Source: Psammoneis japonica
Lineage: Eukaryota
Direction: 5' to 3'
DNA: 64,000 nt
Assembly: GCA_008632985.1 (NCBI GenBank)
Contig: QPGO01000295.1
Span: forward strand, 1-64,000
Shown: piece by piece, positions 1-64,000 of the stretch
How positions within the stretch are numbered: position 1 is the first letter of the stretch
How the letters are laid out: every line of letters starts with the position of its first letter
Notes under the pieces: model-generated
The model's input: only the letters and a program-made list of their open reading frames with translations
Database searches by the model: none
Told to the model about the DNA's origin: nothing
Translations under genes and position numbers: made by a program

Positions 1-1325
1 ACAGCAACAGTGATGCCAGCAACCAGATGACCGCCTGCAAAATGTTGATGATGCGCCACACTTCATCCACAAAAAATCTGGCCATGCTGTGTCCCTTGCA
101 TCTCCCATGATGCCCCTGCCAGCTCACAACAACATCATCATCTGGGAGGGCTGAGCAAGAGACAAAAACAAGCCAACGAAAGGAATGGACATTGGAGGCA
201 ACTGTTCGTCCAACACAAGCAGCACAGTCATTTGTTGTTTTCATGAAATTTTGAGTGCATTTGAAGAGGGAGGAGCTCAACAAAAGTGTCCATGGTTGGC
301 AAAATGACATTTCATTCTGATGCAAAATCAAGTGTCGAGCAAGGGTGTGGTTGCTCCACGAAGATGAGGATGGCTTCTTCCAGTTTGATTTCCTGGTTGG
401 CTGTGATTTGTTTCCATTTGTTGAGGGCCCAGTGAGCAAACAAATGTGTGTGGCTGTTGTCTTGAAGGGTTCACTGGAGTGCATGTGCTTGAAGGAAAGC
501 TGACACCATTTGTGTTTGGCCTTCAGTCTGTGCCTTGGACTTGACCTTCCATGTCCATGTCCTTGCAAAATGCGTTGAAAGCCACAACCCCGTGTTTTGT
601 GACAAGTCAATGTGGTTTGACCCTTTTGTGTTGTTTGAAACAACATGGAAAAGGTGGTTGGTTTGCAGCATTCATCTCATTTTGTTTGGATTCCAGCAAG
701 CTTCATTGGGCAACAAGGATCTCTGTGACAGGGACACATGAAAAAATGATTCTTTTCACATGAGAAATTGGAAAAGACTGCCATTTCTTTGTTGTTTTGT
801 TGAAGTGCATCCCAGCTTGGCTGGGAAGTTCAACAACATCGACATTTGCACCTTGGAAGGCAATGTTGGAGAGAATGATCCCGGCACGTGCAAGCTAAAA
901 TGACGGTCTTTTGGCATTGGTGACAAGAGTGACTGCGATGGAGGTGTGGCTGCGTGTGATTCTCATGATGCTCAGATCGGATGTGTCTCATGACCTGGGC
1001 ATTTGCAATTCGCACATGATCATTTCCAAAAGGTCTGTGACAACAATCAATGCCTTCAAGAGGACATCGCTTGAAAGTTGGTCAGTGTTGGTTTGAGCAC
1101 GTGGGGCTTCTTTGACCACTGAGAATGATGAATCAAACAATGTCTGGTGAAGGTTTGTGTTGTTTCTGCAGCTGTGACTTGTCAATTGCCACTCTCTCTA
1201 ATTCTGGCAGCTGGCGGAGCAGGTGGCCAGCTCAACCACACCTTTCTTGCATTTTTCTTGTGATTCTTTCTAGAAAAAACTCAAAACAGTCAATTCTCTT
1301 TGCCAAGAAGTCTTCCTCCTCTTTT

Positions 1326-3808
1326 TCAATTTTGCTCCTCTTTCTCTTTTTGGCGATTTCCTTTCACGATCTTGATGAGTCTTTCCTTGTCCGCGACAAG
1401 TTCCTCATTGACAAAAAGTTTCATTGTTTGCTCTTGGCGAGTGTCAGTGGCACCCCACCAATCTCTTCCATGGGGGTGAGTGCTCCTGATTTTCTTGTCT
1501 ACAAGTGTGTCTCTGGACAGACCGTTCAAAACCTTGGTCACGAGTGCAGCCGAGAAGACTCCTCGCAATTTCTTGGGGTCACCATCGAGAAACTTCTTGC
1601 AAAACATCTCTGCCATCCTCTGCGTGTTCATGTGGGTCGAATCATTGTGGCAGTTGCTTGAGTCACAGAGAATTGCAAGAATTGCTTGCACTTCCGGGTG
1701 ATCCAAGCACTTGTCTCTTCTGGCAACTTCTTGTGGCTCAAGGACCATGGGCGGCGGCTCATGTGCTCTTTGATTGTGACAATCTCCAATGTCTTTGCAT
1801 CTTTTCTGCTGTCCGGTCTTGCGTGGTGTACAACGCAAGTGGTTTGTCTCTGCTGGGAGAAGGCCAGATGGACCTTTGCCATGCAGTGCATGGCCCAAAG
1901 TCTCTCCTTGACTGGCACGTTGGATCACTTCGTCTGTGTTTTTCCTGCATGCCATCCCAACTTGCGAGTCTCCCTGGGGCATGAGGCAGATGACGCTTTC
2001 CCTTCCATCAGTGGCCAAGAGACTCTTTCCATTGAAAGTCGCATGCCCGAGTGCTTGAATCAAGTTCTCAATGCTGAAACCAACGGCGAGGCACATCACA
2101 AGGTGACTCGGAACTCGTGTGCTGGATCGACATGACGTTGCTCTCCGCATTTTCGAGCAGCCAAACACAAAAATTGGCATCTGCACACTGAACATCGCAT
2201 CAACCTTGGCGACAACCTCTGAGACTTGGCGGTTTGAAATGCAAGAGAAGCCACGCTCTTGACCTGGCAGCTGGTGAGACACCCCTTGCCCCATGCAGGT
2301 GAGAGCCACGATTGGCTTGCCGACGCAAGCACACATTTCTTGCACAAGCGCTGCCTTCTCAAAAATGTTGCCTTTGACCCGTGCCCTTCGTGTGGCGCAA
2401 TCGAGCAAGAGGACCCCCGGTTTGTTGTCGCCCAATGCTTGGTCGTACATCATCTTCATCTTCTTGTTCGTGCAGGGGATGGTGGCGCCGATTTTGGTGG
2501 CGGAAGGAAACCCAGCTCTGCCTTGGAAGCCAATGTCGTCATCAAAAGTCTTTCATCTTGCACACTTTGATCGCACACAGGTTCCTCAGCTGTTTTGATG
2601 TTCTCTTCGCTTGTGTGGTTGATGTTGTTTTCTGGGCAGATGGGCTTGCCATTCGAGTCTTTCAGTGGCTCCATGTTCTCAAGACCTGAGCAATCCGAGT
2701 GCGTGCGCAGTTTGAACAAATCAAGACTTTGCTTCAGCTCATGCTTGCAGAGCAGCACAAATGGTTTTGGCGCAGCAGTGACCATGATTTTCAAACACGG
2801 TTTCAACTCCAACAGCCGTTTCATTGCCAATTCCATCTTTTGAGACCCTTCCTTTGTCCTGAAGAAAGCATCTGCCTCGTCCATGATTGGCGCAAACTTG
2901 AACTCTCTCTCATCACATTGTCGCAGCTCTTGGCAGCGTTCCAAAACCTGAGCTCCCAAATTCATCTCACTGGCCACATCGGGAAACACCATCGCGATTC
3001 CATTTTCGGCATTGATGTGGTGCTGGAGATCCGTCATCGCATGGCGCCTTCCATGCGGCGTGAAAACCTTGCCTTGACATTCGGTTCCTTTGGCTTGAGC
3101 CAGAAGCTTGTGGCACAATGCCAGGCTTTCCGACTCATCCTTCGTGAGAATCATCACTGGAACTTTCATCATCAAACACGTGGCCATGATGACGGCTTTG
3201 CAATCAGATTTGCCGCTTTGGGTTAGCCCGCAAGTCAATCGGTCGGGGTGCCTTTCCTGCGCCAGGATCGCAGAAGCGGTGTCAGTCACGACCTCATCAA
3301 TGTCAAGTGTTTGGCATGATTTCAAATCTTTGCACAAGTTTCGCTGCACAATTTTGGAGATGTGCTCTGCCAATGCGTCCTTCTTGTCAGTTTCCTTCAC
3401 AATCTCATAAAAAATGTGTTCACCTTCTAGGTGCATGTTGAACATGGACTCTCCAGTGGACTCTCCAGTGAGCTCGTGCTGAAGCAGCAGCATCTTTTCC
3501 ATTTTCTTCTTCTCGGTTTTGTTTTCTTCAAACTCTTCGAGTGCGTCGGCATCAAAGTCTTCTCGCTCGTGGCAGTTGGGGGCATCCCTGACTTTGTCTG
3601 GCACAGCGTGAAACCACAGTGCAAAGCTGTAAAGAGCTCTTTGCGTGCGGGCCTTGACCCCACGGAGTTTTTGATCTTTGAGCCGTGCAAAGCTGTGCAT
3701 GAGATCGTCAATCGAGCGAATGTTGCAAGAAGAAGCCAGTGTGGCTTGTGTTTCGAGGGGCACATCCAGCTCTTTGTACACATGAAGGAGATCCGGAGGT
3801 AGAGCCAT
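1326..3808 (-). pseudogene. SF2 helicase-like / Z1-type P-loop protein, split into two ORFs (2456-3808 and 1326-2459)
   Basis: Walker A-like GLTQSGKS, Walker B-like IMDEAD, motif III-like VTAAP, C-terminal IFVFGCSKMRRATS and ENLIQALGHATF (QxxGR-like); frame break near 2460-2600; Tyr->Cys/His decay. Confidence 0.65.
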
Positions 3809-4091
3809 TTCGTTTCACTGGAGCTAAAGCATCTGCAACAGGTCCCTGCAAAGCTGTGTCAATCTGCTTTGTGGCAGTGAAAATGGGAAAGAATGTTGAT
3901 TCTCAGCAGGCTGCGCTGGCGGAGTGACGACGACAAATTCTTCTTGAAGAGAATCTTTCACCGCCCTCCACGCCAGCGTTTGCAAAGTTCAAGTTTTCGT
4001 GCACCTCTCTCAAAAGATTCCCCACGCAATCTACTCGCCGAAGGTGCTGTTCTTCATTCCTCTTGGACCGGGGCGCCATCATACGATCACA

Positions 4092-6122
4092 ATGGGCGCC
4101 AAGCGAAAAAAGTTGGAGGAGGAAGCAGAAAAGCTCCTGCGCACACTGGATTCTTGTCGAAACGTCAAAAGACAGTTCGGTGTGGATTCCCACATTTGCC
4201 AGTTCGAAAACAAGATCAAGACAAGGTGTCGAGCGGTTCAAGAGATCCTAGAGCAAGAAACCATCCCAGAAGATGAAGGCCACAATTCTCCATTCCTGCT
4301 GGCACCGCCTGCTTCTTGGATTGGGCCCCGAACACATGCGGGACAGGATGAACCACCATCAATTGTGGGTGATGCCGAAAGGGCAAGTGACCAGAATGGA
4401 GGCCCGGACAAAAAAGCTGCAGGTTCAAGAGAAGAAATAGAGCCAGAGCAAAGATTGTCAGCATCCAAACAGCTTGAGGCAGAGGAACCAGCAGCAGCAG
4501 AACTGGACGAAACTCTGCTCTCATTGCCGGCCGAGTGTGAGAACGAAGTGATTGAGCCGTTTAAAGCCAAGTCAACCGGGGACGAAGAACTGGACAATGA
4601 AATTCCCATGTTTTATGAATTGATTCGAAAAAGTAAACTCACTCTTGCTCTCCAAGGTTTTGGGTCGAAACAAAAGCTGAAAGGCGACACAGAAGTGCAA
4701 AATGCAGGCCCAACTAAAAGATCATTGTCTGACGGCTTTGATCCCGCCAGCCTGCGCATAAAAGGAAAGACCATCCAGAAAGGGCGTTGCCATCAGCACT
4801 TGGAAGAAAGCAACAGATGCAGTCTTGATGTTGTTGTCGCAGTCAAACACTTCTGCACAGAGAAGATTGCAATGTGCATGTTGGTGACACACTTTGAAGA
4901 GACAATCCCAGGTCAACACAAGGATGACTTTGGCTCACATCTTCATGAGTTGTTCCCTCACGTTCAAGTCGAAGGCACTGACGTCGAATTGCCACTGGAC
5001 CCATTTGGGAAAGAACAGTTGAGCGAGATTCCAGATCTTGTCTGTCAGCCACAGACAGAGGGGAAATGGCATCAGTTCGCCCACTGCTGGTCCAAACCAA
5101 GAACCAGAGAGGCGAAGCGATCCGAAAAGCACGTGTTGGATCTATTTGCAGGGTGTGGTGGCATGGGGATCGGGTTTTAGAGATGCGGATTCAAAGTGGC
5201 CAAAGCGATTGAACAAGACACTGCAGCGGTCGAAACTTTGTCTGCAAATGGCTCGCACACGTCCATTTTTGCCGGCGACATTCGCGTGTTCCTCGAACGA
5301 TGCCAAAAAGATCCAGAATGCAAGGCAAGCATTGGTTCCATCGACCACGTGCACGCTTCTCCTCCTTGCCAAGGCTTTTCCGGCACGAACCGCAATGGTG
5401 GCAAGAATGACGAAGAAAACAACCAGCTCTCGCTTTCCTTGATCGATGCAGTGAAGGAGTTTCGTCCTGTTGCAGTTTCTTTCGAGAATGTTCTTGGAAT
5501 GTGGAAACGCAAACATTTCAAGTACATCATGAGAATCGTTGCAGATCTGATGCGCATGGGACACCAGGTTTGCTGCTCCTGCCTCCACGCTTGTGATTTT
5601 GGAGATGCACAGAAGTGTCCAAGGCTCTTTTTGTTTGCGGCACACATGTGTGCCCATGTGCCACCCTTGCCACAAACGACACATGGCAGCGAGGCCGATC
5701 AACTGCCCCGTGTCTCGGTGAGAGATGTTCTTCAGCCATTTGAGGGTCGGTTCGAAGAGGACCCCTCGCTGCAAGAGGACATGGAAAGGCAACGTCTTGC
5801 AGCGGAAGCCCTTGCTCCGGCTGTGAAGACAGGAATGCCGCTGATTCACTGTTTTGAAAATTGCCGTCTTTGTCCATCCAAGTTGAAAGCATTGCAATCC
5901 TTTCCGGCAGACTGTCGATTCTTTGGAACGGCGGCGGAGCAACGAAGGCAAATCGGAAATGCAGCACCTGTGGAGCTCGCCACGGCTGTCGCCCACGTCT
6001 TTCAAGCATCACTGGAGTTTGCGCACTGCAATGAAAGCAGCAGAGAGCAAGGCAGAACTGCGTTTCCTTGGTGTTTCTCACATCCCGCGCCCACGTTCGG
6101 AAGAGAAGGACCGCTCTTTTGA
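4092..6122 (+). pseudogene. C5 DNA cytosine methyltransferase, DNMT4/RID(Masc1)-like, with an in-frame TAG at 5178-5180
   Basis: Motif I LDLFAGCGG, motif IV HASPPCQGFS followed by GKNDEEN, motif VI FENV, motif VIII QKCPRLFL (QKRPRLFL in other copies), motif IX ALQSFP, motif X RQIGNA. ORFs 3999-5180 and 5196-6122 are in the same frame. Confidence 0.88.
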
Positions 6123-7686
6123 GGATCAATGAATGAATGAGTAAAACGAGGATGCATTGCTCTGCTTGGTTGTTTTGCAGTTTTCAACAGCGTGCGAATA
6201 AATGGACGGCACACGTGCCCTCCATTGACACTCTTGTGCGAGATCTTGGGGCATTCATCATCATCTGCCAGGCCTGTCGACAGTCGCCTCATGCGAGTGC
6301 ATGGCACCACTCTTGAGGAAGCTTCAACATGGAAGGATGCCTTTTTAGTTCTTCAGAGATTTCTGACTGTTGCTGCAGTTTGGTGCCCTCTAGAGCGAAA
6401 CGTTTTAATTCACATGTTTCACACAAGTGATCCTCGGATCAGCCCTTTCGTCTTTTCCACCGTTTGCACTCTCAGCAGCAGCACTGGAACTACACTGCTG
6501 CTTGTTTGTTTTGTGGTTTCCAATGGCGCACCAAGGCAACCAGCAGATGCACGGCACACGCACCAACTGTCGACAGTCGCGTCAAGCGAGTGCACGGCGC
6601 CACACTTGAGCCCTTGGCCTTCCTGTCTTGAAAGTTTCAGGGCGCAGACTGTTGGGCTGAGGCATCTCGACGACAAGCAGCTGCATCAAACAGAGTGCTG
6701 CGCCAACGATGAATCCCCCCGTCATGGTCTTGCCTTTTTTGTGCGTCGTCCCTCACCGCGCAGTGGTTTGATGTTTTGGGGGTCATTGCACTCAGAAAGA
6801 CCGACAGACTTCTGGTTCAACAGACAGACAAGTGCAAAATCGATGCACTGTCATCACGATTTTGCACGGGACTGGCTGTTGCACTGCCAAAGCAATGAAT
6901 CAGAAACCCAAAATCAATTTGTTTTGTTTTTAAGGCATTTGCACAATGAGCTGATGGATGGCAAGATGATTGGACTTTCTGAACTTTTTTTGGTGCTGGA
7001 AACTTCGTACGACAGTGATGACAGCAAGCAACGTGCCCCAGAATCTTTTGTCATTGCAGACATTTGGGTCGTTGAGTTTGAGAATGCACTCAGTCATGAA
7101 AGTCCCCGAGAGCAACCTCTGTTTCAAAGCAAAACATTGCACCAATGCCGTGGTCTGTTTTCTGTTTTCCGACCTGTTGCTGTCATGCATTCATCGTTGA
7201 ACAACTGAGACTTCATCAGGGGGACTTTCTTTGCATGTTCATGTTTTGAGCAGTGCAGTCAATCATTGCAACAAGTGCCCATTGCAAAGTCATCCTGTGA
7301 GAGCTTGAGAAAAATGTCATCATCATCATCAGCATTGACAGCAATTTGTTGCACAAATTGCAACAAATGCACGACTGTCAATCTGCCCAACATTGTGCTG
7401 CTGTGCGCTCATTGTGCACATGCCTCAAGAGAGTTGCACTCCTTGTTGAACAGTTGCCTGTGATTGGATGCTCAAAGTTTCTCCTGTGCAGACACATGCT
7501 TCTCATTGTTGCTCAGTTTCTGGTCTGCAGGCACACCAACTCTCATTTTCAATGCACTCTTTTCTCCATTTTGGCTCACCCATCTGTCATTTCTCCTCAC
7601 TGCATTGTGCATCCTCACAAGAGTTGATTGCAACATCCTCAAAGGCGCACCTTGAACTGGAAGTGCTGTCATCTTCAAGGAACTTG

Positions 7687-8049
7687 GATGAGTTCCAGCC
7701 CTGGGTGGGACTCTGTGTGTGACATTGACCCTGACCCCAACCCCAACCCTGTCAAGCAATGAAAATGAAAAGAATTGCCAACAGAAAAAGAGGCAATTTT
7801 GTGAATGTGTCTCCTCCTTGGCGAGTTTGCCCGGGTGTGTTCTGCAGACATCAAAGAACACACCCAGCCCATTTTCATTTTCACAAATGTTGAAAATGGA
7901 AAGCCTTTGGCTTTGCAAAACAGGCAGCATGAAACAATTTCATAGAAACTCACACACAGATGTGCACATGTGTGACACGCAGCACAATCCAAAAAACTCT
8001 TGATGCCACAGTTCAGCAGTGCAAGGTCCCACCTGAGCTGGAGCATGTC
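7687..8049. mobile_element. MITE of the GACG(C/T)GTTCCAG-TIR family, degenerate
   Basis: Ends gatgagttccagccctgggtggga ... ggtcccacctgagctggagcatgtc; internal similarity to the copies at 38715 and 50518. Confidence 0.8.
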
Positions 8050-8612
8050 TTGTGCCTGTGTCTGGGCTGGTCTGCAACAGCAGACATTTGAAGCCAGCAG
8101 ATTGAAAAATGGAGCCTGAACCTGAAAACATTTCTTGGTGACAGAGAGTGCCATTCAGGTGATCAGTCAGAGCACCGGCTGGGGTGACAACAAAGATGAG
8201 TCAATCACAAGCTTTGGATGCATGCAAAGCAAGCTGAGACATTGGCCAAACAACAAAACAACAGGAGCCCCACAGTTGCAAATGAAATGATTTCTTGGAG
8301 AGTCCAACAGGCTTGCAGTGATTGACTTTGATGATTCAGCAGACCAAGCTCTCTTGCATTGGTGTCTTGAAAAAGTGACATCATGCACACAGGGCTCATG
8401 TCATCAAGAGCCCAATTGCTTCTTGCTCCAGCTGGAGCTGCAACAGTGGGGGCAATGGAAATGACTCAAATTGCCTCCCAAAATGCTTGCGTAAAATGAA
8501 AGTCATCCCAACCATGCAGACTGTTTTTGACATCCTGCAATTCTGCGCACATTCCAATTGAAAGCACCTGCGTGTTTTTGGTGCCAGGTTCCCAGCAGAA
8601 CAGCCAACCACC

Positions 8613-11600
8613 ATGGCATCTTCTTCTGTCGCTGATGGCAGCCATGGCCCTTCCCATCGTCATGATGCGACTGTGGCTGATGACATTGCTGTCGACCAAT
8701 CATCCATCAAGCCTTCTTCCAAACCAACCGAGCGTCAGTTTGAGGAAATTGCCCTTCGTTTTGACACCAGTGGCCCAGAAGTGTCGTGCAAGCCGATGAC
8801 TCTTGTCACCCCTCATTTGCAGGTTCTTCAACAAATTCTCTTCACCTGCTGCAAGGACGTGAAGATCATGGACAATGACAACAACCAAATTGCCCACATT
8901 GACGTTGCCAAATGGGTGTCATCTCTTCAACACAAAAGACACTTCATCATTTCAATGACTCGCAAAGGTGAAAAACGTCCTGTGACTCACTGCTCATGCC
9001 ACCGGATCCTTACAAAAATTCCTCTTCGTGACATTTGCTCTCATCCTCACGTCCAGAGCATTTTGGATTCCAACAATGTGGGCATGAAACGTCATCATTG
9101 GAACAAATCAGATGTTGAAATGGCCTCCCCAGCATGCTGCATTGCTGCCACGACCAAACACACTCCGGCCAACGAAGCTGCAAAAATGTTCCTCCGTGAT
9201 CTTGGGAAATGCCAGATGAAAATGCCAAAGTTCAGGTTGGTGACCACCTCTGTTCGTGCCGACAACAAAGGTCTCGCTCCTCCCCTGCGCGCTGCTGCCT
9301 TCACTGTTGAGGCATTGATGGAAGACTGTCACTCGGCCGGGAACAACAAAGGTCTCGCTCCTCCCCTGTGTGCTGCTGCCTTCGCTGTTGAGGCATTGAT
9401 GGAAGACTGTCGCTCGGCCAGGAAGGCCTTGCTTCATGCATCCAAGAAGTTCCCAACACACATTGTCATGGCCAAGACCCGGTGCATCTCCCCCCTCGCC
9501 TTTTGCAACATGGTCAAAATCCAAGCTCATCGGAATGAAGACACTTTCGTTGTTCCACTGCTGAGTGCTGCTCCGAACATTGTGCTCCATTTTGAGAATC
9601 AGCTCAAGGCATTAAAAGACGTGAAAGCAATCTTCCCATCAAGTGCCACCGCCGGCCGCTGCAACATCCTTGTCAACCGTCTCGAGTTCAAAGTCTGCCA
9701 GGGCTGCCATTTCCACGTGTGTCATGAATCTCATCCCAACAATTTCGAAAGAAGCCTGTCCCACCCCACTCTTTGAGGATCCTCCTCAAGTTTTTGGTGT
9801 GATGGAAGAGATGTCGGACACTGGCAAGTCCATTGCATTGCCCAGCATCTGCAGTTTAGAGCCTCTTGCCTTTTCTGATGTTTCGCCTTTGACAGACAAC
9901 AATGCTTTGGGCAATCATCAACACCCGCCACCGTTGCAATCGGCAGGCCGCGGTCATGATGGCAGAGGTCAAGGTTTCCCCGGCCATGGTGCTCAACAAG
10001 GATCAGCTGTTCCTCCCCACATCCACACCCAGTGCTCCCAGAACTCTCCCTCACTGCCCGGATGCTCCAGCTGCCCCGGCATGATTTCTCCACCACACTC
10101 ACATGCACAGGCCACACAGTCCACTGCCAGTTCCATCACCTCCGTTCAGCCAGCAGACGTCCAACGCAACATGTCTCAGATGCAAGAGAAAACCAAGAGA
10201 GTTTTGGAGGATTTACGTTCTCAGCACTCACGAGATGTGGAGGCGATTGACAACGCATTCATGCAACAACACAAGTGGGGCATCACAGCTTTACATGCTC
10301 AGCACTCTCAACAACTTGCGGGTGTGCAGGACCAGATGAATCAGACAGTCCACCTGCTCCAAGCAAATCATCCAACCCAAACATCTGCATGGAAACGTCC
10401 AAATCACATGGACACACTGGATTGCTCGGCTGATTCACGTGACAAGGAGAAGGATTTTTAGACAGGGGTTGGACTTTGCCACCTCCACCACCTCAAACAA
10501 TCAGGCGTCCACCCGACATCTCATCTCCTGCAAACAAGTCCCTCACCATCTCCCATTTGTTCCACCGCACCGCCAAGTGCCGCAAAATCTCCTGCAACAC
10601 TGCAACACCTGACAGTCAGAGCTCTGAGCCCCAGTCTTCTCCTTGGAGGAGTGTTGCCCAACATGAGCAGTGACTCCACCAGCACATCCTACATCAACGA
10701 ATGGCAATTGCTCTTGAATGGCACCAGCAATGGTGCATCAAGCACTCGAAGCATTGACCTTTCTCAGCCAACATCCAATGATCCTGTTGGTGATGATCTT
10801 CGTCCTGAGCTGCCCCATCATGCTCGTCTGTGTGCATTCAACGCTGATGGTTGTAAATTTGACAAAAGAGGTGGTGACATCCGCGAGCATTGTCAAATGG
10901 CAAATGAGATCCAAGCAGACATCGTGGGCATTTCGGAACTGTGTCTGGACACTGCGCAGTGTGATGTTCTGTCAGTGTGTCGATCTGCTGTCTACAATGC
11001 AATTTCCAACGGATGCGGCACCTTCTCATGCAGCTCAATCCCCTTCACTGCTCAGTGCAAACCTGGTGGAACGGCCCTCTTGTTGGGGAACTCCATCTCA
11101 GCACGACACCGCAGCACAGTCCATCAACCCCAGGAAGGCCTTTTGTGCGGATTTGTCTCATTGCCTGCAAGAGTTCTTGGTCGACTCCAATTGCAAAGTC
11201 ATCATTTGCGGAGATTTCAACACCAATTTCTCAATGGACACGGACACACTTGCCTCCCTCACCCATCGTTTTACCCTTTCGGATGTGTCACATGATTTGA
11301 TGGGCAGCAACGAACTTTCCACACACACGCGAGGATGGAAACGCCTGGATTTCATGCTTGCCACACCCGGTGCTTTGTCTGCTGCCAGGTTCGGTGGATG
11401 TGAAGCATTCGGTTGTCGTGCTGCGTCAGACCATCGTGCTCATTTCGTGGATTTTGACACGATGGCCTTGTTTGGGAATCCTGCCATTGACTTGCCCAAG
11501 GCCAGCTGCAGGGACATCCAGTCTTTGCCTCAACCCCAAGTGACGACCCACTTGGACGCCATCGGACCGATGTCAGCCAGCAGACACATGTTGGCTTGCT

Positions 11601-14226: not shown

Positions 14227-14639
14227 CAGAAGTTGGGTTTTGTTTTGTTTTTGACATTCTGATGGTCATTGTGCCCACACAAAAAACTCAATGCGCATGC
14301 TCTGGTTGTTCCCATCCACGCAACATGCTGTGCAAATTTGCTTGACTGTGGTGCCAATGCTCGCATGTTGCTGAAGCGATTGCCCAGTGAATCAGAACAA
14401 TGGGCAAACTCTTTTTGAGACAGGTCTTGTTCTTGAGATTGGAGCTGCAGCTTGACATCATGGCAGCACCAGCCACCACATGCAAGGGCACTTGAGAGGA
14501 GAGCATCATTTGTTCTGTGCTGCCAGCATTTTCCACAATGTTGGAGGTTGGGGTCAGGGTCAGGAAATCTGCTGTTGTGGTGACCAATCGGCCAACAACC
14601 AGGACTTGAATGTCTTTTGGTGCCAGCATGAGAGCAAAA

Positions 14640-16540: not shown

Positions 16541-16555
16541 TGTCATGGGTGCACG

Positions 16556-18676: not shown

Positions 18677-18685
18677 CTCCTTGGG

Positions 18686-48553: not shown

Positions 48554-48944
48554 GATGGGTTCCAGTCCTGGGTGGGACTCCGTGTGACATTGGGCCCGTA
48601 GAATTCCACGTGCGAGCTCCGCAGTGCGAGAATTAAATTAATGCATGTGTTTGTCTTCAAACATCAAATAAACTGCCAAGTTTGTGGTGCAATTATGCCT
48701 CTTGCCACTCGACGTTTTTGCAAATGCGCCTGCCCTGCGCGAATCTTAAGACATTGTAGAATCGCGCTGTAACAAAAAATGTCAAAAGTTGTTGGACGGA
48801 TCGCTCAACAAGTGCACCGTAAAATGACACAAAATGTCGAAAAAATCACGTAGAAATCTACGTGCGCGACATACGACGTGATTCAAAAAACTGTCGATGT
48901 CACAGTTCAGCAGTGCGAGGTCCCACCTAGACCTGGAACGCGTC
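48554..48944. mobile_element. GACG-TIR MITE, partially TA-mutated
   Basis: tctc|gatgggttccag ... ctggaacgcgtc|tctc; near-identical to 57726-58110. Confidence 0.93.
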
Positions 48945-50923: not shown

Positions 50924-51333
50924 TTGTTGCTCTGTTTTGTGAGTGGGGACTCCTCCTTCCATGTGCCACACAGCACATTCAGTCACAGTGCTCCCAACAC
51001 ACCAGGGGCTATGAACAATTTTACGTAAACACCTTCAACATGCTCAACGGGAAAGCCAACGATTTAGTGAGAAGCCGAGCTCGAGCCGACGAGCAGGCCA
51101 TCACTTGTCCATGGCCGATCAATCAAGAATGCGGACGGACAGACTGCTCTCTTTTAGCTGGCTAGAGAGCACACAGGTCCTACTTAGCACCAACCCTATG
51201 CCAAACGACGTGAGAGAAGAGGCGGACATTGACAAGGTACTTTTTCGTCATTAGCAGGCTCCAGGAGAGGCAATGAACTGCCAGTTTTCTATGCCTATAG
51301 AACTTTAAATGGAACGCGTGGGATGTAGTTTCT

Positions 51334-54167: not shown

Positions 54168-54589
54168 CGTTTTGCTTGAATAAGATCAAAAGTTGGATCA
54201 AGAAGACACGATGGGAGGAGAAAGGTGATGTTGTTTTTTATGGGCTTCACGCCGTTTCTACCAGGAGAAATCGGATGTAAAAAATGAGGTCATTGATGGC
54301 TGGCATTTTGTATGTTCTGAGAGACGTAGAATGTACTGTACGTGCAACATGGAACATAGAACTTGGTCATGGTCATAAATGAATGAATATTTCATATGAA
54401 CGGTCATTCCGTTTACAGCATTAGATTTATGCTGCACCGCACCGTCCGCGAATTTTTATAAGTCATGCGTATTCATACAATTACAACGGAAATTTTGGCC
54501 TGCGTGATTTGTAGTTCGTAACGGTTATCCGTTGAATTTAGTCTTGTTTGGCAAAGAACACCTTTTACGTATGTTTTAAGTCGTTGGGG

Positions 54590-54990
54590 CTGGTGATGAC
54601 TTATGATGACTCTATGATAACTTATGATTACTTTTGATGACTAATGATTACTTATGATTACTTGTGGTTACTTATGATTCCTTTTGATTACTTATGATTA
54701 CTTATATGATTACTTTAAAAAGTCGAGTGTGTCTGTCTTGTGCAAAAAATATCATGTTAACGGTCAGATTTAAAGGGCTGTTGTGTCAGTTTGTCTGTGG
54801 ACATTTGTCTTTATTACTTACGGTTACTTGTGATTATTTATGATTACTCATGATTAATTATGATGACTTATGATGACTTTTGATTACTTGTGATTACTTT
54901 TCATCACTCATTATTACTTTTGATTACTTTTGATTACAAATGATAAGTTAACGTCTTTCTGCGACCAACTCTCGATTGACATTTAACGAT
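54590..54990 (-). repeat. TA-rich 10-bp minisatellite element (tgattactta-type), relative of 24240-24645
   Basis: Arrays at ~54595-54715 and ~54825-54945; flanks shared with the ~24300 element. Confidence 0.8.
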
Positions 54991-54993
54991 TAA

Positions 54994-56232
54994 GGGTGGG
55001 AAATCCCTTGTGTTTTTGACATGTGAATGCAAACACATGAAAAATAACTGACGTTTTAAGGCGGGTCATCCCCCACTTTTTTTAGCTCGAATTTGGCCGA
55101 ACAGCTCGTGATTTGCATGATTTTTCTTGAATTTCACCGCGCTTCACCGTGGTGAAAACATCAAGCCACAAGTCTGTGACGGAGGTGGGCCGTGCGTCAA
55201 CTTTCATTTGTTTTGTGCTTGTTGTGTGTCTGGGGTCGCACACACATCAAATGTTTGCGCACGGACCGCTGCATTTTTGGACTTGTGTCGACATTGCCGT
55301 CATCATCGTGCTTCGATCACAGTGTCTGATGTTCTCATTTTCATGCACGATCGGGGGTGAATGTGGGCAATTTTTGCATTCAAAAACAAACACTGCAAAT
55401 GTCCTCATTCAAATGCCACGACAATTTCTGGGACAAATGCGGGGATGACCCACCTTGAGGCGGGTCACCCCCATGTTTGTCCCAGAATTGCCGTTGTTGC
55501 ATTTGTGTGAGATTTTTTGCAGTGCTTGTTTTTGAATGCAACAATTGTTCATGGTCACACCTGATCGCGCACGAAAATGAGAACCATCAACACCACGATC
55601 GAAGCACGACGATGACAACAATCATCGACATTTCTCAAAAACGCAGCGTGCCGTCTGTCAACTTTTCATGCATGCACAATCTTTGATGCACAACAAACAC
55701 AAAACAAATGAGAGTTGGCAGACGGACCACCTCCGTCACAGACTTGTGGCTTGTTGTTTTCACCACAGTGAAGCACGGTGAAATTCAGGAAAAATCATGC
55801 AAAATGCGAGCTGTTCGACCAAATTCGAGCTAAAAAAAGTGGCGACTGACCCGCCTTGATCATTTGTGATGCAAATGTGGAAAAAACACACCGACGCGTT
55901 CTGCGCTCACCGTGCAAACAGCACGACAATGGACGAAATGCCATTCGTTCTCGAAAACTGACAGGGGTGGCCTCCAACTTTTTTCACAGTGTGTCGCATT
56001 TGACATGGTCAACAAACTCATGAAGAAAGTTGGAGGCCTCCAAACCTGCACTGCGTTCAATGGACGGCATTTCGGCCATTGTCGTGTTGTTTGCACGGTG
56101 AGCTCAGCATTCGCTCTCCAGCCTTTTGAACATTTTTCCACAAATTGCACGCATTTGTGAAAAACACTGTCTTGTTTCAGACATTTTTTGTTTGAAATTT
56201 CTAAAATTCACAAAAAAAGAGGGTTCCCAGCC
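54994..56232. mobile_element. TTAA-targeting MITE hosting two further MITEs
   Basis: ttaa|gggtgggaaatccc ... gggttcccagcc|tcaa. Confidence 0.6.
55060..55855. mobile_element. Two ~395-bp TTAA-site MITEs in inverted tandem (55060-55454 and 55459-55855)
   Basis: ttaa|ggcgggtca ... tgacccacc|ttga|ggcgggtca ... tgacccgcc|ttga; the second copy is an imperfect reverse complement of the first. Confidence 0.88.
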
Positions 56233-56449
56233 TCAAAACCATTGGCAATTTGGTGAGCACAGAATGTGTCTTGTCGCTGAAGCAGTGCTGACCTTCACAA
56301 CATTTCTGTGCATCAGTCCGTTGGGTTCACATGAAAAATGTTAACCTTCATAACATTTTTGTGCATTGGTCCGTTGGGTTCACATGAATGCATGGGGAAA
56401 TAAAAATTCGCTGACGGTGCAGGCATCCATCATTGTGTTCATGATGTTG

Positions 56450-56845
56450 GACGCGTTCCAGCCCCAGGTGGGAGCTCGCAGCACTGACATGTGACACAAA
56501 CAATTTTTGTCATCCGTCGCATGTTTTGCACGTGCATTTCTGCGTGTGATGTTTAAAAAAAATTGTCCAGACTCACTGTTTTGTGAAGCCCCAGACACTT
56601 CACACAACAAATTTGCAGAAACGATGATGCGCCAGTTGCATTCTTCAATGTCTGAAGAGTGCAACTGGCCAAGCAAAAAGCGATGTGCTTCAATCATGGG
56701 CAAGTTTGTGCATTTGCAAAATTGCCTCATTTTCTGTTGGCGATCATTGGCACTTTAACTGCCATGTGCTTTTGCTGCGGAGCTCGCACGTGGAATTCTG
56801 CGGGCCCAATGTCACACGGATTCCCACCTGGGTCTGGAACACGTC
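56450..56845. mobile_element. GACG-TIR MITE
   Basis: gttg|gacgcgttccag ... ctggaacacgtc|gttg. Confidence 0.9.
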
Positions 56846-57725
56846 GTTGTGCCAGCAGGGTCCTGTTGTTTTTATGGGCTTGAGGCCGGTGTTGTGCTGA
56901 GAGACGTGGATTCTGTCTGCAGCACTGGCACAGAGCATGATCAAGGTCAATGATGAATGGACATTTCTTGGCAGTCACGGTCTTCAATGAATGGACATTT
57001 CCTGTGAACGATCATTCTGCAAGGTCAAACAAGACAAAGACTTTAGAGTTGGCAAAAATTGTGAGCGAAAGACCAAGGCAACCAGGTTGCTGTCAGCGAA
57101 GCCCGCTGCAATGGCTCTTGTCATGTCTCACAGAATCATCAATGCTTTTCTGCGCAAGCACACATTGGCAGTTTTTGTGAGGAATTCCACGGGTTTTTTG
57201 CACCAAGCAGCCATCACCATGACGACCCCTCCTCCACCGCAGGCTGGCCCCGCCGGTGCTCCTCTTCCGGATCTTCCTCCCATTGTGGATCGCACTCCAT
57301 CAACCCCAACAAGAGCTGGCTCAAAAAAGCTCAACGTGATTGGCCCAAAAGAAATTGCCACCCGATTTGAGTTGACATTGGCAGAGGACAATGCCCCTGC
57401 AGTCCCAGCTGAGGGTCACACCAACACCCTCCATGCCCTTCAGCAAAAGGTGTCCCAAGATCCGTTGATGCACAAAATCTCCATCATGTCGAATCGTGGT
57501 GTTGATGTCCCCAATGTCAACATCATTGAATGGAGTTCTGGACTGACGCACTTGCAACATTTTGTTTTACACCAAGTCGGAGGCACCCGCCGCCGCCCTC
57601 CTGCGTGCATCATCACTCACTGCATCTGCACTGCCTTGGCTCTTGCCAAAATCAGGAACACACCCTTTGCACACAAAGTCCTTAAAGACAATGGCTTTCA
57701 CATGAAATGTCATGAATGTGACAAG

Positions 57726-58110
57726 GACGCGTTCCAGCCCTAGGTGGGACTCCGTGTGACATTGGGCCCCGTAGAATTCTACGTGCGAGCTCCGTAGTAC
57801 GAGAATTTAATTAATGGACACATTTATCTTCAACATCAAATAAACGGCCAAGTTTGTGGTACAATTATGCCTCTTACCACTCGACGTTTTTGCAACTTCG
57901 CCTGCCCTACGCGATTCTTAAGACATTGTAGAATCGCGCTGTAACAAAAAATGTCAAAAGTTGTTGGACGGATCGCTCAATAAGTGTACCGTAAAATGAC
58001 ACAAAATATCGAAAAAATCACGTAGAAATCTACGTGCGCGACATACGACGAGACTCAAAAAACTATCGATGTCACAGTTCAGTAGTACGAGGTCCCACCT
58101 AGACCTGGAA
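57726..58110. mobile_element. Young, nearly unmutated GACG-TIR MITE (right terminus clipped)
   Basis: gacgcgttccagccctaggtgggac ... gtcccacctagacctggaa; TA-rich. Confidence 0.9.
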
Positions 58111-60942
58111 TCTTGTGCTGCTCTTCTCCTGGATTTTGTGCCTGAGCACTGCCCTGCGGACATTGTTCAGAAATGACTTGTGTCAATTCCACCCCCCTGC
58201 AGTTGCTCCAAGGTTCCTTTCCGGTTGATTGTTCAATCGGCATCTTCCCCAATTGACAAGGACATCAAATCGACTCATTGTGCCATTGAGACCCCACGAG
58301 ACTGCGCCAAGGACATGATTGCAGCCCTGATGGAAGCATTGGAGGATCGTCCATTGGCGGCAATTTTCACCTGCTGGCAGCACACTCAACCAGAACAATT
58401 CGACAAAGCAGCGCGCAAGCAACGAAAAACCTCCGCAAAAATTCACGTGATCCCATTGCTTCGCTGCAAGGACAGGATGCATTTTTGTGTGTCCAGTGCA
58501 ACTTCCATGATTCCAGGGGCAGTGGACGTTGTCCCCTCAAAGAAGAAAATCTCAGTCCCACGTTGCAACATTCTCGTGGACAAACAGTGCTTTCGAAAAG
58601 TCAAAGAGCACATTGCAGAAAACCTCTCAGGCTGGACGAACCATCTTCCAGAAAACGAATTGCCGTTCATTCACCAACCTCGCCCAACAAATCCTGGTGT
58701 CAACAACGATGTCTCGGACACTGTTCAGTCAATTGCCTTGGCTGGCATCCAAAGCTGGAAGTCTCTGGGACATTTCTGACATTTCTCCTTCTGACTCACA
58801 AGCTCCTGCTGAATCCGCAACACAGCCAGCACCTCCACTGGTTCCGCGAAATGTTGGGATTGTTGGCGGCTTTCAGATGTTTGCACAAGCCCTGGAAAGT
58901 TCCACCAGTGTGGCAGTCCCCACAGCAACCCCCACTTTGGAGTTGACATCTCATGCCAACAAAACAGCTGAGCTTGAACAGATGGTGCTTCAACATCATC
59001 AGGAGCAGGATCATTGGTCAGAGCTGCTAGAATGACAACATCAAGCATCTCTTGTGCAGCTGGCTTCCAAGTTTCAAGATTTGATTCAGGAAACCATTTC
59101 ACCCATGATGACTCCGGGAGCTTCATCTCCTCAGAGGAAGAAACCTGCACTCTCAGCCCCAGCAGGCTCTTCATCTCACCATCCTCCCAACGACACTGCC
59201 GCGGATGACGTGGATCAAGAAGACTCAGTTTTTCCTGAGGCAGGGCCAGTCATCCAACCTGCCCATTTCCCAAGATGCATGCACCTGTCGTGCTGTTCAG
59301 TCTTTCTTCGAGAAAGCACGGCATCACACCCAGGGGTGATGCCCCTTTGGTGGCAGTTGGTCCCGCTGCCCAGCAGTTGACCCAGATGTTGTCAGGCAGA
59401 AGTTTTGCACCTCCCTCCAGCACTGTTGATCACACTGCTCTGGCACAGAATGACCTGATTGGTGATCCGCTGGGACCCAAATCACCAGACCAAACATGTT
59501 TGCACGCGTTTGATGCAAATGGATGTGCTTGTGACCTGCAAGGCAGAGACTTCAACACCTGTTCTCAAGTCACTGCGGAAACACAGGCAGACACAGTTGG
59601 AATTTCCGAAACTTGTTTGGGCACAATGCAATGCAAAGTTCGACAGAGTTGCACAAACACAGTTTGCCAATCTTTCCAACACGGCCATCTGACATTGTCA
59701 TCCTCCAAGACTGCCTTTTCCATCCCTTGCAAACCTGGTGGCACCGCCTTGCTTTCATGCAATTCTTTGTCTTCACAATGCCATGCACAATGTGAAGATC
59801 TTCTCGGGAGATGGTCGATCCAAATTTTTGATGGACGCCATGGACGGCAAGTTGTGTTTGTGTCGTGTCATCAAGTGTGCTTTGGCTCTTCTGTTGCAGG
59901 TGAAACAACAGCTTGCGCAAAACAGGAAGCATTGCTTTGACGACAAGGACGCGCAAATCCCGACACAAGATGATCATTTTGCACGGATCTGACCCGCATC
60001 CTAGAGCGGTTTCTCGATGATCCAGACCAAGAGGTTGCGCTGTTTGGAGATTTTGGCACTGACAATGACACCCTTGCTTCCATGGCGCAACGGTTCAACA
60101 TGTCGGACGTGATGTGTTGCCATCAGGAAGATCTTGAATTTTCCATGCATGTGAGAGGATCTTGTCAGCTGGGCTGCATTCCAGCAACTCCAGGAGCTTT
60201 GGCTGCATCAAGAAGGTGTGGGTGCAAATCATTTGGTTGTCACACATCCTTGGATCATTGAGCTCATTTTGTCAGCTTTGACACTGTGGCATTGTTTGGC
60301 AACCCTGCCGTCAACTTGCCTCGTGCCGAACATCGAGGCTTGCAAGCAAATTCTCCGAAACACGCAACTGCACATTTGGAGACAATGGCTCCCCTCCTGC
60401 AAAGTTGCAGTGTCAAGGAGCAAACCAAAGCACTGGCACAGTCTGAGACGCCAAATCACAGACTCACAGAGAGACTCAGCCGCAACAGTCTGCAGCTCTC
60501 ATTGTCTTCTGCGAAGCATTGTTGACGTCACAACAAACCAGAATGGTCAGCAAAATTGGCCAGTCTCTGCAGACAGATTTTGGTGTTGTCCAGGATGATG
60601 TCCATGTTTTGCGCCAAGGTTGACATGGCACCAATGATTCCATGTGCTGAGTTTGATCTCAAAGAGTCCTTTGTTCTTCCAACCACCTTACAAGAATGTG
60701 CCACAGCTCTACAAAAGGCTCAGTCAGAGTGCCGTCAGGTGGCAAGAGAGAGTCAGAAACACCAAGATGAAGAATGAGACGCCCGCATCGCCAAACTTGA
60801 ATTAGACTGCACCAAACAGTCAAAAGCCAAAGCACAAATCCTGCGCAATCAACGCTGTGCAGAAGAAACTGAGCGGGCATTTAAGAAAACCAACGCTTGC
60901 AAAAAGACGGAAGGAGCCAGTGCACAAACCATTCAAATCCCT

Positions 60943-61334
60943 GACGCGTTCCAGCTCTGGGTGGGACCTTGCACCACTGAACTGTGACATTGACAGTTTT
61001 TTTGGATCGCGCCGCATGTCGCGCACGTAGAATTGCACAAGACTTTTGTGAAATTTTGTGTCATTTTGTGGTGCACTTGTTGAGCGATCCGTCCAACAAC
61101 TTTTGACATTTTTTTGTTACAGCGCGATTCTGCAATGTCTTAAGAATTGCGCAGGGCAGGCACATTTGCAAAAATGTCAAGTGGCAAGAGGCACAATTGC
61201 ACCACAAACTTGGCCGTTTGTTTGATGTTGAAGATGAACACATCCGTTGATTAAATTCTTGCACTGCGGAGCTCGCACGCAGAACTCTGCGGGCCCAATG
61301 TCACACGGAGTCCCACCCAGGACTGGAACCCGTC
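60943..61334. mobile_element. GACG-TIR MITE (opposite orientation to 57726), heavily TA-mutated
   Basis: ccct|gacgcgttccag ... ctggaacccgtc|ccct; removal restores LINE peptide IQIPEDP. Confidence 0.93.
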
Positions 61335-64000
61335 CCCTGAAGACCCCCGAGACAATCCCAAAACGTGCGAGAATTGGGTGACGACAGATGCCCCAGACAA
61401 CATTGAATCTGCGCTCCAGCACTGCAAAAAAACCAACGACACTTCGGACAGGCACATGGCACTCCTCTCACTGTCCCACCCTTGTCTGTTGACCTTGGAT
61501 GTGAAGGAGACACTGTCATGGCCGATTTAATCCTAGACGGAGAACATGAAACTGGACACCTGAACCGTGCCACTTTGCTGCTGACACAGCATCTTCGAAG
61601 AAGGACACCACCAACAGCTCCAAATTCTCTCACTCCTGGGGCTCTCCACTTGAAGACAAAAATGTGGTCAGAGTCAACGTCTGCTTCATTGAAGTCAGGG
61701 ATTCATCTGGGACACTGGAAGGCCCTGTGCGCTCCACATTCCCATGCAAATGATTGTGACAATGACGGGAATCCATCCGAGCAGAAAGAATTGTTGGACT
61801 CGGTCCAGCAATCCCTTGTGGCAATGCAACTTAACCTGATCAACTGCGCTTTAAAGCAGGGTTGCTCACGCAAATGATGGAAAGACATTGTGAATGCAAC
61901 GATCTTCAAAGAACCAGGCAACAACAAAATGCACCGATTGTGCATGATTCACATCTGCGAGGCGGATTTCCAACTGATTGCAAGTGTCAAGTGGCGCAAA
62001 TTAGCCCAGCATGTGGATCACCGCTGAATGTGCAACCCAGGGATTTGCAGATGTTGCTCCTTCCTTTCCGCCCAAACGCCTGTTTTTCTCAAAAACTTGA
62101 TGCTGGAGATGTCACGTGCTTCCCGGAACACTTTGCTCACCAGTGACGATGACTGCACTTCTTGCTGTGACAGGAACATCCCAGCAACAGTGGGTTTGCG
62201 TGCAAAGAGTGATGGCATGCACAAGAGAGTGGTCAAAGTCAATGTGGCAATGTCACATCATGCATGTCATTGGCTGTGCACTCTGTCAGGAATCACCCAA
62301 AAAAGTTGTTCCCATTCCTCTGAGTTCCCGTTGCATGGAAAAGGACAAGGCAGCGGAAATTCTCCTTGGTGCTGGAACACTCTGCGCAGTGGACTGTTTG
62401 ACATCTTTGATGCTGAAGCTGTTGGTTTGTTCTTCAAAACTCTGGACGGACAGTTCCACATCCAAGCATGCAACAGGGGTCATGTTGATGACACTTCCAA
62501 GCAGGTGAATGATTTCAGAGCCAGCCCTCAGCCCTCCACGCTCAAGTTGTCCCAGTCTCTCCAATCGGACAGCCGGTTGTGGTGTGACTTGTTGGACACA
62601 GCAGGACATGAACTTGAGTTGCTGAAGTGTTCCTTCCATGCCACAGAATGGGACTTTACAGAGTGCGGAGAACCGCACATGTGACCCTGCCATGACAACA
62701 TTGAGGTGGAGATCTTTTCCACTGTCCAAACCACTTCCAGGTGCAGCCAGCAATTGTCAGCACACACACCTCACAAAACCCTGGGACACTGCATGACTCC
62801 AATCGGTGCACAGAAAACTCAATCGAAGAAACCCCAACACAAGAGCAATGCTGTCTCCTTGTTTCTCAGGTTGTGCCCGCTGGACAGGACAGAAACATGG
62901 CAACAATGCCGCGCTTGTCACCTCTCCTTGATGACACGTGTTCTGGCTGGCTCAAATTTTCTTCCAAAAGAGCTCCAACAGGTGCAACAAAAGGCCATGC
63001 CGACGATTTTTGCCAAATGTGGTTACAACAGAAACACCAAAAGGCTCGTTCTCTACAGACCACAGTCGCTGGGAGGCGGAGGTTTTCGATTGCTTGATGT
63101 TGAACAAGGAGTGGCCCAACTTCAACAACTGTTGAAGCACTCAAGAGGAGTTGCCCACCTGCAACTCTCGCCACAGGCAGTGACGGGTCAGTTGGGGAGG
63201 GAGCCACCTTCGGATGGACGATTGCCTCAGATGGTGCGCCATCAGTGAATTGTGCAGGACCCGTTTTTGGAAAGACGCCATCTTTGCATCGCGCAGAGGC
63301 CTGTGGCATCCTTTCAATTGCACGGTTCATTTTTTGATTGTGTGAATGTTGTTGGATTTTGGTTCCTTTGGACGCTGCAATTCATTGTGACAACAAGGCT
63401 TTGGTTGACGGTCTTTCCCGGTTGACATCTGCCCCACCAGCGATTGACCCAGACGAAGAAGCTCACGCTCCACACAATTTTCATGTTCGCTGCAACGGCG
63501 CTGATGCCATTTCTCCAGATTGGGACGTTCTGAACAAAATTCTTCACACCCAGCAAACTCTGAAGCAGCTTTTGGATTCAGAGGATCTGTTCTCCCTCCA
63601 GTCTCATGGGTGAAAGGACATCAAGGCAGGCATTCTCCAGTCCATGCCTTGCCCACAAACGCCAGAGTCAACATCCGCGCTGACAGATTGGCAGGAGCAT
63701 GTCAGGGTCACTGCCTGTGTGACAAGTCAAGCATCTGCCTCATTGCAACTCTCACCTCAAAACAGAGGGAGGCACCGCAACATCGAGCCACAAGAAACAG
63801 ATCAGACATGCAGCCACCGCCCCCCAACTGATCGACTGCATCATTGAACGCAGCCAGTGGACCCCTCCAGTGATGGAGCAAGTCAATTGGAATGCCCGTG
63901 CAATCCTGGTGAAGTGCCATTCAAAGAAGCATGTCAACGCGGCAAAACTGGTGCATGACTTGCCACCACCCACGAACAAAATTGCTCGCAGATGCGATCA

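Follow-up and report, generated by a model that had tools for sequence, protein, structure and literature searches.

The first 64,000 nucleotides of contig QPGO01000295.1 (assembly GCA_008632985.1) of the diatom Psammoneis japonica, which we call the window and to which our analysis is confined (positions 1-64,000), have lost almost all of their TpA (TA) dinucleotides outside two genes and three young repeat copies, and carry an excess of TpG (TG) and CpA (CA). The best explanation, and in our judgment a probable one, is a targeted hypermutation of transposon-derived DNA that converts TA after the elements have integrated. Below we present the depletion and its borders, the evidence for the direction of change and for its occurrence in DNA on both strands, and a flanking-base rule, and weigh them against the alternatives. 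The features on which the argument relies are collected in Table 1.

TA depletion and its borders

A sequence-only reading of this DNA, made without database searches, had reported long stretches with no TA, and the counts confirm it. The window contains 616 TA, compared with 4139 ± 47 in 200 base-composition shuffles of the same sequence, and its longest TA-free gap (46921-48599) measures 1,678 bp, whereas no gap in the shuffles exceeds 196 bp. The observed-to-expected ratios (O/E) of the whole window are 0.15 for TA, 1.57 for TG, 1.62 for CA, and 0.58 for CG. When profiled in 1-kb bins, TA O/E is below 0.2 in 53 of 64 bins, below 0.1 in 42, and at least 0.4 in seven. From the positions of the TA sites we delimited five islands of normal composition (25739-26175, 27449-31120, 48599-48930, 51010-55084, and 57741-58101), whose borders are only a few tens of bases wide. 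They add up to 8,877 bp and correspond to two genes and three copies of short repeats with terminal inverted repeats, with O/E values of 0.655 (TA), 0.98 (CG), 1.19 (TG), and 1.16 (CA) and a GC content of 0.465. The depleted part, which takes up 55,123 bp (86% of the window), retains 199 TA sites where 3,508 are expected (O/E 0.057); its other ratios are 0.52 (CG), 1.63 (TG), and 1.69 (CA), and its GC content is 0.495. The loss of TA is thus accompanied by a gain of 3-5 points in GC, which goes from 0.44 to 0.49 along a series of copies resembling miniature inverted-repeat transposable elements (MITEs). That the two single-copy genes are TA-normal, as the same reading had stated, was likewise borne out (O/E 0.63-0.67), and the three young repeat copies proved to be normal too.

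The depletion also reshapes the stop codons. Per 1,000 positions, TAA occurs 1.7 times in depleted DNA, compared with 10.5, and TAG 0.9 times, compared with 9.5, while TGA is kept. With TAA and TAG so rare, the depleted DNA gives rise to many long false open reading frames (ORFs). The window as a whole holds 177 stop-to-stop ORFs of at least 110 codons, counting both strands.

Direction of change in a copia element

To establish what the missing TA sites have become, we turned to copia 1, a structurally intact long terminal repeat (LTR) retrotransposon. Its gag-pol frame (17135-23179) is 2,013 codons long, is free of frameshifts, contains one in-frame stop, and includes an open part of 1,500 codons (18677-23179). 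The polyprotein has 1,168 relatives, the best of them 60-66% identical; the diatom Fragilaria crotonensis is named in 2 of the 120 listed. We aligned the frame with 40 relatives and scored 660 conserved columns, of which 107 are changed in copia 1. At the codon level, these changes comprise 27 TA>TG, 21 TA>CA, nine CG>CA, and four CG>TG, the rest being five other A:T>G:C and two other G:C>A:T changes, 16 transversions, and 23 multi-step changes, several of which amount to two TA events (e.g., T/ATA to T/GTG). TA>TG or TA>CA thus accounts for 48 of the 84 single-step changes, to be compared with seven other transitions. At 25 columns where Tyr is conserved, copia 1 has Cys in 17, His in six, and Tyr in two, and among the residues of the frame Tyr falls from 3.18% to 0.13% as Cys rises from 1.16% to 3.73%. 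The Tyr-to-Cys and Tyr-to-His motifs that had been picked out from the sequence could all be located: CVND at 21917, NACLNA at 21662, and TCSGVV at 21569 in the copia ORF, where the consensus of the relatives reads YVDD, NAYLNA, and TYSSVV, and HVDD at 62481. The proposed direction, from TA to TG or CA, is therefore backed by the 40 copia relatives, and it is backed as well by the relatives of a methyltransferase and by young repeat copies, both described below.

The copia 1 element also gives the order of events. Since it is saturated with TA changes and yet has an open frame and a near-normal CpG content (O/E 0.74-0.93 in the bins covering 17001-23000), and since the bin at 55001-56000 has also lost its TA while keeping its CpG, TA was lost first, and quickly.

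Post-integration change in DNA

At the moment of integration an element has two identical LTRs. A position with TG in one LTR and CA in the other would be the expected product of independent decay of a single ancestral TA, and we counted five such double differences between the LTRs of copia 1 and eight, in 175 bp, between those of copia 2, an older and degraded element; these counts take in some misaligned columns at the ends. In the core of the copia 1 LTRs, aligned by eye, only about two differences are neither TA- nor CG-derived, and almost all other differences are CG-derived.

Short repeats show the same change in graded form. The stretch at 25500-26460, which includes the young copy of a high-copy MITE-like repeat, contains 52 TA, and old copies of the repeat at 46700-47200 and 49950-50910 contain one or two. 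Aligned to the 46700-47200 copy, which has two TA, 48 TA sites of the young copy read CA in 20 cases and TG in 16. Three copies of a second family, of about 400 bp with terminal inverted repeats and taken to be a non-autonomous DNA transposon, carry 27, 13, and 4 TA, a series that fits episodes of mutation and fits plain age too. That the youngest insertions are untouched suggests episodic action, although their youth alone would fit equally well. As these untouched inserts sit inside TA-free DNA, the process does not spread into them from the flanks.

A segmental duplication allowed us to estimate rates. Its two copies differ by 66 TG/CA doubles, 134 sites with CG vs. TG or CA, 20 sites with TA vs. 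TG or CA, 55 other transitions, and 66 transversions. From 168 conserved and 134 half-decayed CG sites we calculated that the CpG route accounts for about 13 of the 66 doubles. The resulting rates are rough, and the figure for TA is a floor because TA sites are saturated: per copy, background substitution is about 1.07% per site, and the changed fraction is about 82% for TA sites and 28.5% for CpG sites. Per base, TA changes about 80 times and CpG 16 times as fast as the background, so that TA loss proceeds about five times as fast as CpG decay. The copies diverge fast because each site becomes either TG or CA.

The duplication contains a pair of pseudogenes of a C5 DNA methyltransferase (DNMT), whose relatives are proteins of 600-980 residues with a DNMT domain only and which has weaker matches to DNMT1. 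Among eight conserved Tyr columns, copy A has His in four, Cys in two, Tyr in one, and Phe in one; among six, copy B has Cys in three, His in two, and Phe in one, the columns from fragment 39112-39808, which the fragment aligner misplaced, having been left out. Two of the conserved Tyr columns pair a His in copy A with a Cys in copy B. Two further events disrupt copy B, a tandem duplication of 1 kb (36418-37422 and 37714-38717) and the insertion of a very high-copy repeat of 390 bp (38715-39110). As for this repeat, its copy in the window is already TA-poor, and its word depth in X1, one of two sets of read-built contigs described below, sums to about 57,000 vs. about 47 for single-copy DNA, so the family may number on the order of a thousand copies.

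Going by its description, the pair would fit the diatom DNMT4. In the MMETSP survey, this protein has a single DNMT domain, falls in a clade with RID and DNMT1, and is found only in diatoms (PMC9998398). [quoted passage not shown] The only DNMT seen in the window is this mutated pair, which makes it a target of the process and not evidence of a role in it.

Strand symmetry and a half-site rule

Because TG (5648) and CA (5707) are equally frequent, both strands are hit; the TG/CA skew in 2-kb bins ranges from -0.16 to +0.14. A runs test on the 53 discordant sites of the duplication detected no strand-coordinated runs (z -1.19).

These observations bear on an alternative in which the transcripts of retroelements undergo A-to-I editing by an ADAR-like enzyme at A preceded by U, the edits being then fixed by reverse transcription. 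Such enzymes do prefer a 5′ U, according to a preprint on the alga Bigelowiella natans (Mettrop et al., bioRxiv 10.64898/2026.01.13.699255), and two of the elements in the window are retrotransposons. Nevertheless, TG/CA doubles separate the LTRs of a single element, the same decay is seen in MITE-like elements, whose terminal inverted repeats lead us to assume that they move as DNA, the copies of the duplication decayed independently, and TG equals CA on the sense strand. Taken together, these data exclude the editing of retroelement RNA as far as we can judge, and we give it next to no credence. They also uphold the claim of the sequence-only reading that the mutator acts at the DNA level (LTR pairs, MITE-like copies, and duplication) and on both strands (TG vs. 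CA counts).

The bases next to TA influence its fate. Writing R for purine and Y for pyrimidine, the 199 surviving sites include 108 YTAR and nine RTAY, and the normal islands have 62 YTAR and 113 RTAY. Scaled by length, survival is 1.3% for RTAY, 5.6% for the mixed flanks (RTAR and YTAY pooled), and 28% for YTAR, and a half-site fit yields f = 0.113 and u = 0.53, with f × u = 0.060. These survivals fit hits at T-A-Y that fall independently on the two strands. Compared with T-A-R, the change of the A in T-A-Y (or of the T in R-T-A) is about 3.4 times faster. Polarised outcomes agree, as RTAR has become CA in 24 cases and TG in 10, and YTAY has become CA in 12 and TG in 24 (Fisher p = 0.002). 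Likewise, depleted DNA has a (YTGY+RCAR)/(RTGR+YCAY) ratio of 1.38, vs. 0.88 in normal DNA (p = 3e-8), and among the 53 discordant duplication sites the flanks R..Y are the commonest (18) and Y..R the rarest (8). This half-site rule is new in this work. The O/E of AA is 1.23 in depleted vs. 1.14 in normal DNA. Error-prone synthesis of the pol-eta type, with a WA>WG signature, had been named as a candidate mechanism in the sequence-only reading; as AA is not depleted, its motif is a poor fit.

Support for the base calls

A hypermutation signature of this kind could in principle be technical, from systematic miscalling or polishing errors at a modified TpA. Three runs of one sample contain stretches of the window, and an independent pipeline has built contigs from reads (X1 and X2). 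The X1 contigs, with a word depth of about 45-80 in unique DNA, match the TA-free sequence nearly perfectly, with six differences in 1,761 bases (30523-32283), six in 531, and three in 594. Since contigs from another assembler reproduce the TA-free DNA, it is not an assembler artefact. An error at the level of the reads is unlikely; what could be said for a technical origin is that the platform is not on record and that the single sample is perhaps the assembly's own source. In addition, the graded repeat copies, the TG/CA discordance between paralogues, and the sharp young islands have an evolutionary coherence that speaks against error, and we regard a technical origin as extremely improbable. 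When we looked at X1 contigs at 90% likeness, 368 of 437 differing places were transitions, an excess to be expected if other copies decayed alike.

The spared genes

Two genes form the largest islands. One encodes a protein with LVIVD and DUF676 domains and is expressed: an X2 contig spliced across the gene (27.6-30.9 kb) defines a transcript at about 27588-30949 whose two introns, both GT..AG, lie near 28015-28119 and 28350-28433. Because of this spliced contig, we conclude that run X2 behaves as RNA. The X2 contigs cover only 27.3-31.3 kb of the 20 kb compared, and the uncovered parts are not evidence of silence. The island sits on the transcript, with O/E values of 0.63 for TA and 0.97 for CG. 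Over 27902-30521, 14 of 2,618 bases in the X1 contig and six in the X2 contig depart from the window, which suggests that alleles or strains vary by about 0.5%. The other gene encodes a Reprolysin-type metallopeptidase with fn3, and its island extends over about 900 bp of AT-rich upstream DNA (54185-55084) in which TA is normal. Within this upstream region, at 54599-54950, units of about 110 bp are repeated directly but imperfectly, with an identity of about 80%.

The genes speak to a further possibility, namely that TA>TG/CA mutation is a genome-wide bias and that selection has kept TA in genes. It would account for the fact that everything outside the two genes and the three young inserts is depleted. 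However, TA is also normal in the introns and untranslated ends of the 27588-30949 transcript and in the DNA upstream of the peptidase gene, and it is normal in young, non-coding repeat copies that lie inside TA-free DNA. We find a bias of this kind very hard to believe.

The 798-residue LVIVD/DUF676 protein has distant relatives only, the best with 25% identity over 39% of the query, and the few that are named are bacterial. The matches of the metallopeptidase in the Atlas fall in clusters that are all bacterial, and its relatives are distant as well. From these comparisons, both TA-normal genes may be of bacterial origin in this eukaryote.

Other features of the window

We assigned elements with Pfam on the ORFs, by comparing the window with itself, and, for the DNMT copies, with tblastn (Table 1). 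As to the element types named in the sequence-only reading, copia (RVT_2), the MITE-like repeats, and the duplicated pair were recovered; the LINE (long interspersed nuclear element) has Pfam matches that all lie below the curated cut-offs, including an endonuclease match at 10718-11884, and gypsy found no support. A Pfam search of 114 further ORFs returned no family at E 0.001, and a laxer scan of 22 ORFs gave weak LINE-type matches only and no gypsy. There was no match in a PDB sequence search of 62028-62681 or in an Atlas search of 59239-59937. Further short tandem repeats lie at 9262-9424 and 44154-44346.

Table 1. Features of the 64-kb window, with positions, strand, and supporting data.
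Feature	Positions	Strand	Remarks
TA-depleted domain 1	1..25738		Holds duplication copy A, the LINE-like remnant, and copia 1; 1-kb TA O/E 0.01-0.15
Segmental duplication, copy A	903..6750	+	Partner 33124-40574; 92.8% identity across the 5,678 bases aligned
C5 DNA methyltransferase pseudogene, copy A	4596..6035 (Pfam domain 5181-6122)	+	PF00145 E 9e-31; tblastn with relative P0152
Degraded LINE-like element (weak evidence)	8562..13688	+	Exo_endo_phos E 3e-4, Exo_endo_phos_2 E 0.018, zf-RVT E 0.014
copia 1, structurally intact LTR retrotransposon	16553..23362	+	LTRs about 16553-16745 and 23170-23362; Pfam RVT_2
Young unmutated copy of a high-copy MITE-like repeat	25739..26175		TA O/E 1.03, GC 0.32; X1 word depth about 8,000-10,000
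TA-depleted spacer	26176..27448		Ends about 140 bp upstream of the gene's transcript start; sole TA between 26173 and 27449 is at 27089
Expressed single-copy gene, LVIVD + DUF676	Island 27449..31120; ORF 28426-30822	+	Pfam; spliced X2 contig
TA-depleted domain 2	31121..48598		Holds duplication copy B (33124-40574), most of copia 2, and the longest TA-free gaps (e.g., 46921-48599)
DNA methyltransferase pseudogene, copy B	36673..39808 (Pfam 36457-37725, 39032-39895)	+	Broken by a tandem duplication and an insertion
copia 2, older, degraded, with nested insertions	40586..49703	+	LTRs about 40586-40760 and 49529-49703; 68-75% identical to copia 1
MITE-like copy, half mutated	48540..48950	+	13 TA; three-copy alignment
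Single-copy gene, Reprolysin-type metallopeptidase + fn3	Island 51010..55084; ORFs 51334-54185	-	Pfam; TA O/E 0.67, CG 0.96
TA-depleted DNA	55085..57740		Bin 55001-56000: TA O/E 0.06, CpG O/E 1.02
MITE-like copy, least mutated	57715..58120	+	27 TA, TA O/E 0.92; terminal inverted repeats
TA-depleted domain 3	58102..64000		HVDD motif at 62481; elements without family match
MITE-like copy, almost fully mutated	60940..61345	-	4 TA

The proposed process and its targets

We propose that an enzyme acts, after integration, on transposon-derived and apparently silent DNA, and that it would change TpA to TpG or CpA (A:T to G:C) on each strand independently, with a preference for the half-site T-A-Y. At about 80 times the background substitution and about five times the CpG decay of the same DNA, it could saturate elements that are otherwise intact, sparing expressed genes and their promoters. 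The agent might be an adenine deaminase, turning A into hypoxanthine, which pairs with C, or a modifier of thymine whose product pairs with G; judged by sequence, both routes would leave the same outcome, and the adenine-directed agent favored in the sequence-only reading may be right without being established. The cue for targeting would be silencing or foreign origin, and the process may be the same as the TpA hypermutation that is live in B. natans. In that earlier reading repeats were the trigger and the mutator a candidate defence system; neither is established, and for the trigger silent chromatin or foreign origin fits as well as homology. Old mutated copies in the window are now unique; homology may still play a part, since a duplication of just two copies is mutated.

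Several observations weigh against the hypermutation we propose, or limit its reach. None of 69 related copia loci in metagenomes is depleted (TA O/E 0.47-0.93), so the process is not general for this copia lineage; it should be said that such contigs favor young, abundant elements. The copy at 25739-26175, whose family reaches a depth of about 8,000-10,000, and the MITE-like copy at 57715-58120 are unmutated, and copy number alone is therefore not the trigger. The link to repeats or chromatin rests on one window of 64 kb, the support for the base calls comes from one sample, and ordinary CpG decay contributes to the TG/CA excess, as the CG O/E of 0.52 indicates.

A different account would make the depletion a by-product of chromatin, in which error-prone replication or repair (pol-eta-like) or a mutagenic modification of TpA brings about a passive decay of TA in long-silent DNA. 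The depleted domain largely overlaps with low CpG (O/E 0.52 vs. 0.98), a mark of methylated DNA, its borders track transcription units instead of element ends, and the spared young copies of high-copy elements fit the time spent in silent chromatin as well as they fit episodes. Against this, copia 1 has reached saturation, with 23 of 25 Tyr columns changed, while its frame is open and its CpG stands at 0.74-0.93, which makes the process much faster than CpG decay; the rate excess is about 80-fold, and the AA ratio of 1.23 is unlike a WA motif. Moreover, only some lines of B. natans mutate, which its authors read as regulation (10.64898/2026.01.13.699255). We consider a by-product of chromatin unlikely.

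Targeted hypermutation of this kind has consequences for the elements and for their study. Tyr codons become Cys or His codons along with many other missense changes, and stops of the TAA and TAG kinds disappear together with TA-rich signals; TpA editing alone creates no new stop in an open frame. Because TAA and TAG vanish, false ORFs arise, and most transposon domains escape Pfam, the annotation of genes and repeats in such genomes is systematically misled.

Comparison with known systems

The closest parallel is the chlorarachniophyte B. natans, a rhizarian. According to the preprint, 231 of 302 nuclear point mutations in its mutation-accumulation lines fell in two integrated viral regions, and 230 of these 231 were A>G or T>C, all at TpA (10.64898/2026.01.13.699255). 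Mutation in these regions ran about 1,000 times as fast as elsewhere in the genome and was confined to some of the lines, TpA-poor coding sequences were enriched for reverse-transcriptase and DDE domains, and an ADAT2-like adenine deaminase was proposed (10.64898/2026.01.13.699255). The window of P. japonica, a stramenopile, shares with what is described there a near-exclusive A:T to G:C change at TpA, giving TpG or CpA according to the strand, here with CpG decay superimposed; a confinement to foreign or silent regions in contrast to host genes, here with sharp borders in one window; and a long-term state of low TpA and high CpA and TpG. There are differences too: in B. natans the process is live and acts on single-copy insertions of giant viruses and virophages whose depletion is only mild (Rho 0.45), whereas here it is known from sequence alone, has come near saturation (0.057), and has struck LTR retrotransposons, MITE-like repeats, and a duplicated DNMT gene. 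Both the half-site rule and the accompanying CpG decay are described here only. The sequence-only reading knew of no such system in diatoms, and we found none there either; the signature itself had already been reported in B. natans (10.64898/2026.01.13.699255). Our search of the literature, subscription-only papers excepted, did not find the signature in diatoms or elsewhere beyond that preprint.

In ascomycete fungi, RIP is triggered by the duplication of a sequence and depends on a DNMT of the RID or DIM-2 type and on the premeiotic stage. It changes C:G to T:A at CpA (or another CpN), so that CpA becomes TpA, TA and AT content go up, and new stop codons appear. Like RIP, the process in the window is a dinucleotide-specific transition hypermutation in DNA that affects both strands and duplicated genes and drives a rapid divergence of copies; unlike RIP, it runs in the opposite direction, from TpA to CpA or TpG, with GC going up and stops being erased. 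CpG decay yields the same TG and CA end products and is active in the same DNA (CG O/E 0.52; 134 duplication differences). Nevertheless, TA loss is about five times faster, and the two are uncoupled in copia 1 and at 55001-56000, where CpG is normal and TA gone. We agree with the earlier reading that neither RIP nor CpG decay can remove TA.

ADAR acts on RNA and APOBEC3 on single-stranded complementary DNA, and their changes are strand-biased and precede integration. The likeness to the window lies in the hypermutation of invading sequences and, for ADAR, in the preference for U before the edited A that the preprint on B. natans mentions. The process seen here differs from both in being strand-symmetric and post-integration and in affecting MITE-like elements as well. 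The natural target of the TadA/ADAT2 family is the A after U33 in the anticodon loop, with U-A-C in the TadA substrate, a target that resembles the T-A-Y of our half-site, and the adenine base editors used in the laboratory derive from TadA. To our knowledge, natural action of this family on double-stranded chromosomal DNA is not established.

It is possible, although we would not yet count on it, that diatoms and chlorarachniophytes share an old, dedicated defence that edits double-stranded chromosomal DNA. Through an adenine deaminase or a thymine modifier, it would act at R-T-A-Y half-sites in silenced or foreign DNA and would be the mirror of RIP: it would cripple transposons and integrated viruses through missense changes and lost signals, and copies, once driven apart, could no longer recombine. 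If this is true, the signature in two distant branches of SAR (Stramenopiles, Alveolata, and Rhizaria) would reflect either an old pathway or repeated invention, and would raise a general question about how protists control mobile DNA. Diatoms can be transformed and cultured, and the T-A-Y rule offers a biochemical fingerprint for candidate enzymes; a natural enzyme for A:T to G:C changes in double-stranded DNA, should it exist, would be of interest to base-editing technology. The window of P. japonica is thus a much stronger instance, in a second major lineage, of a kind of hypermutation described once before, in another alga.

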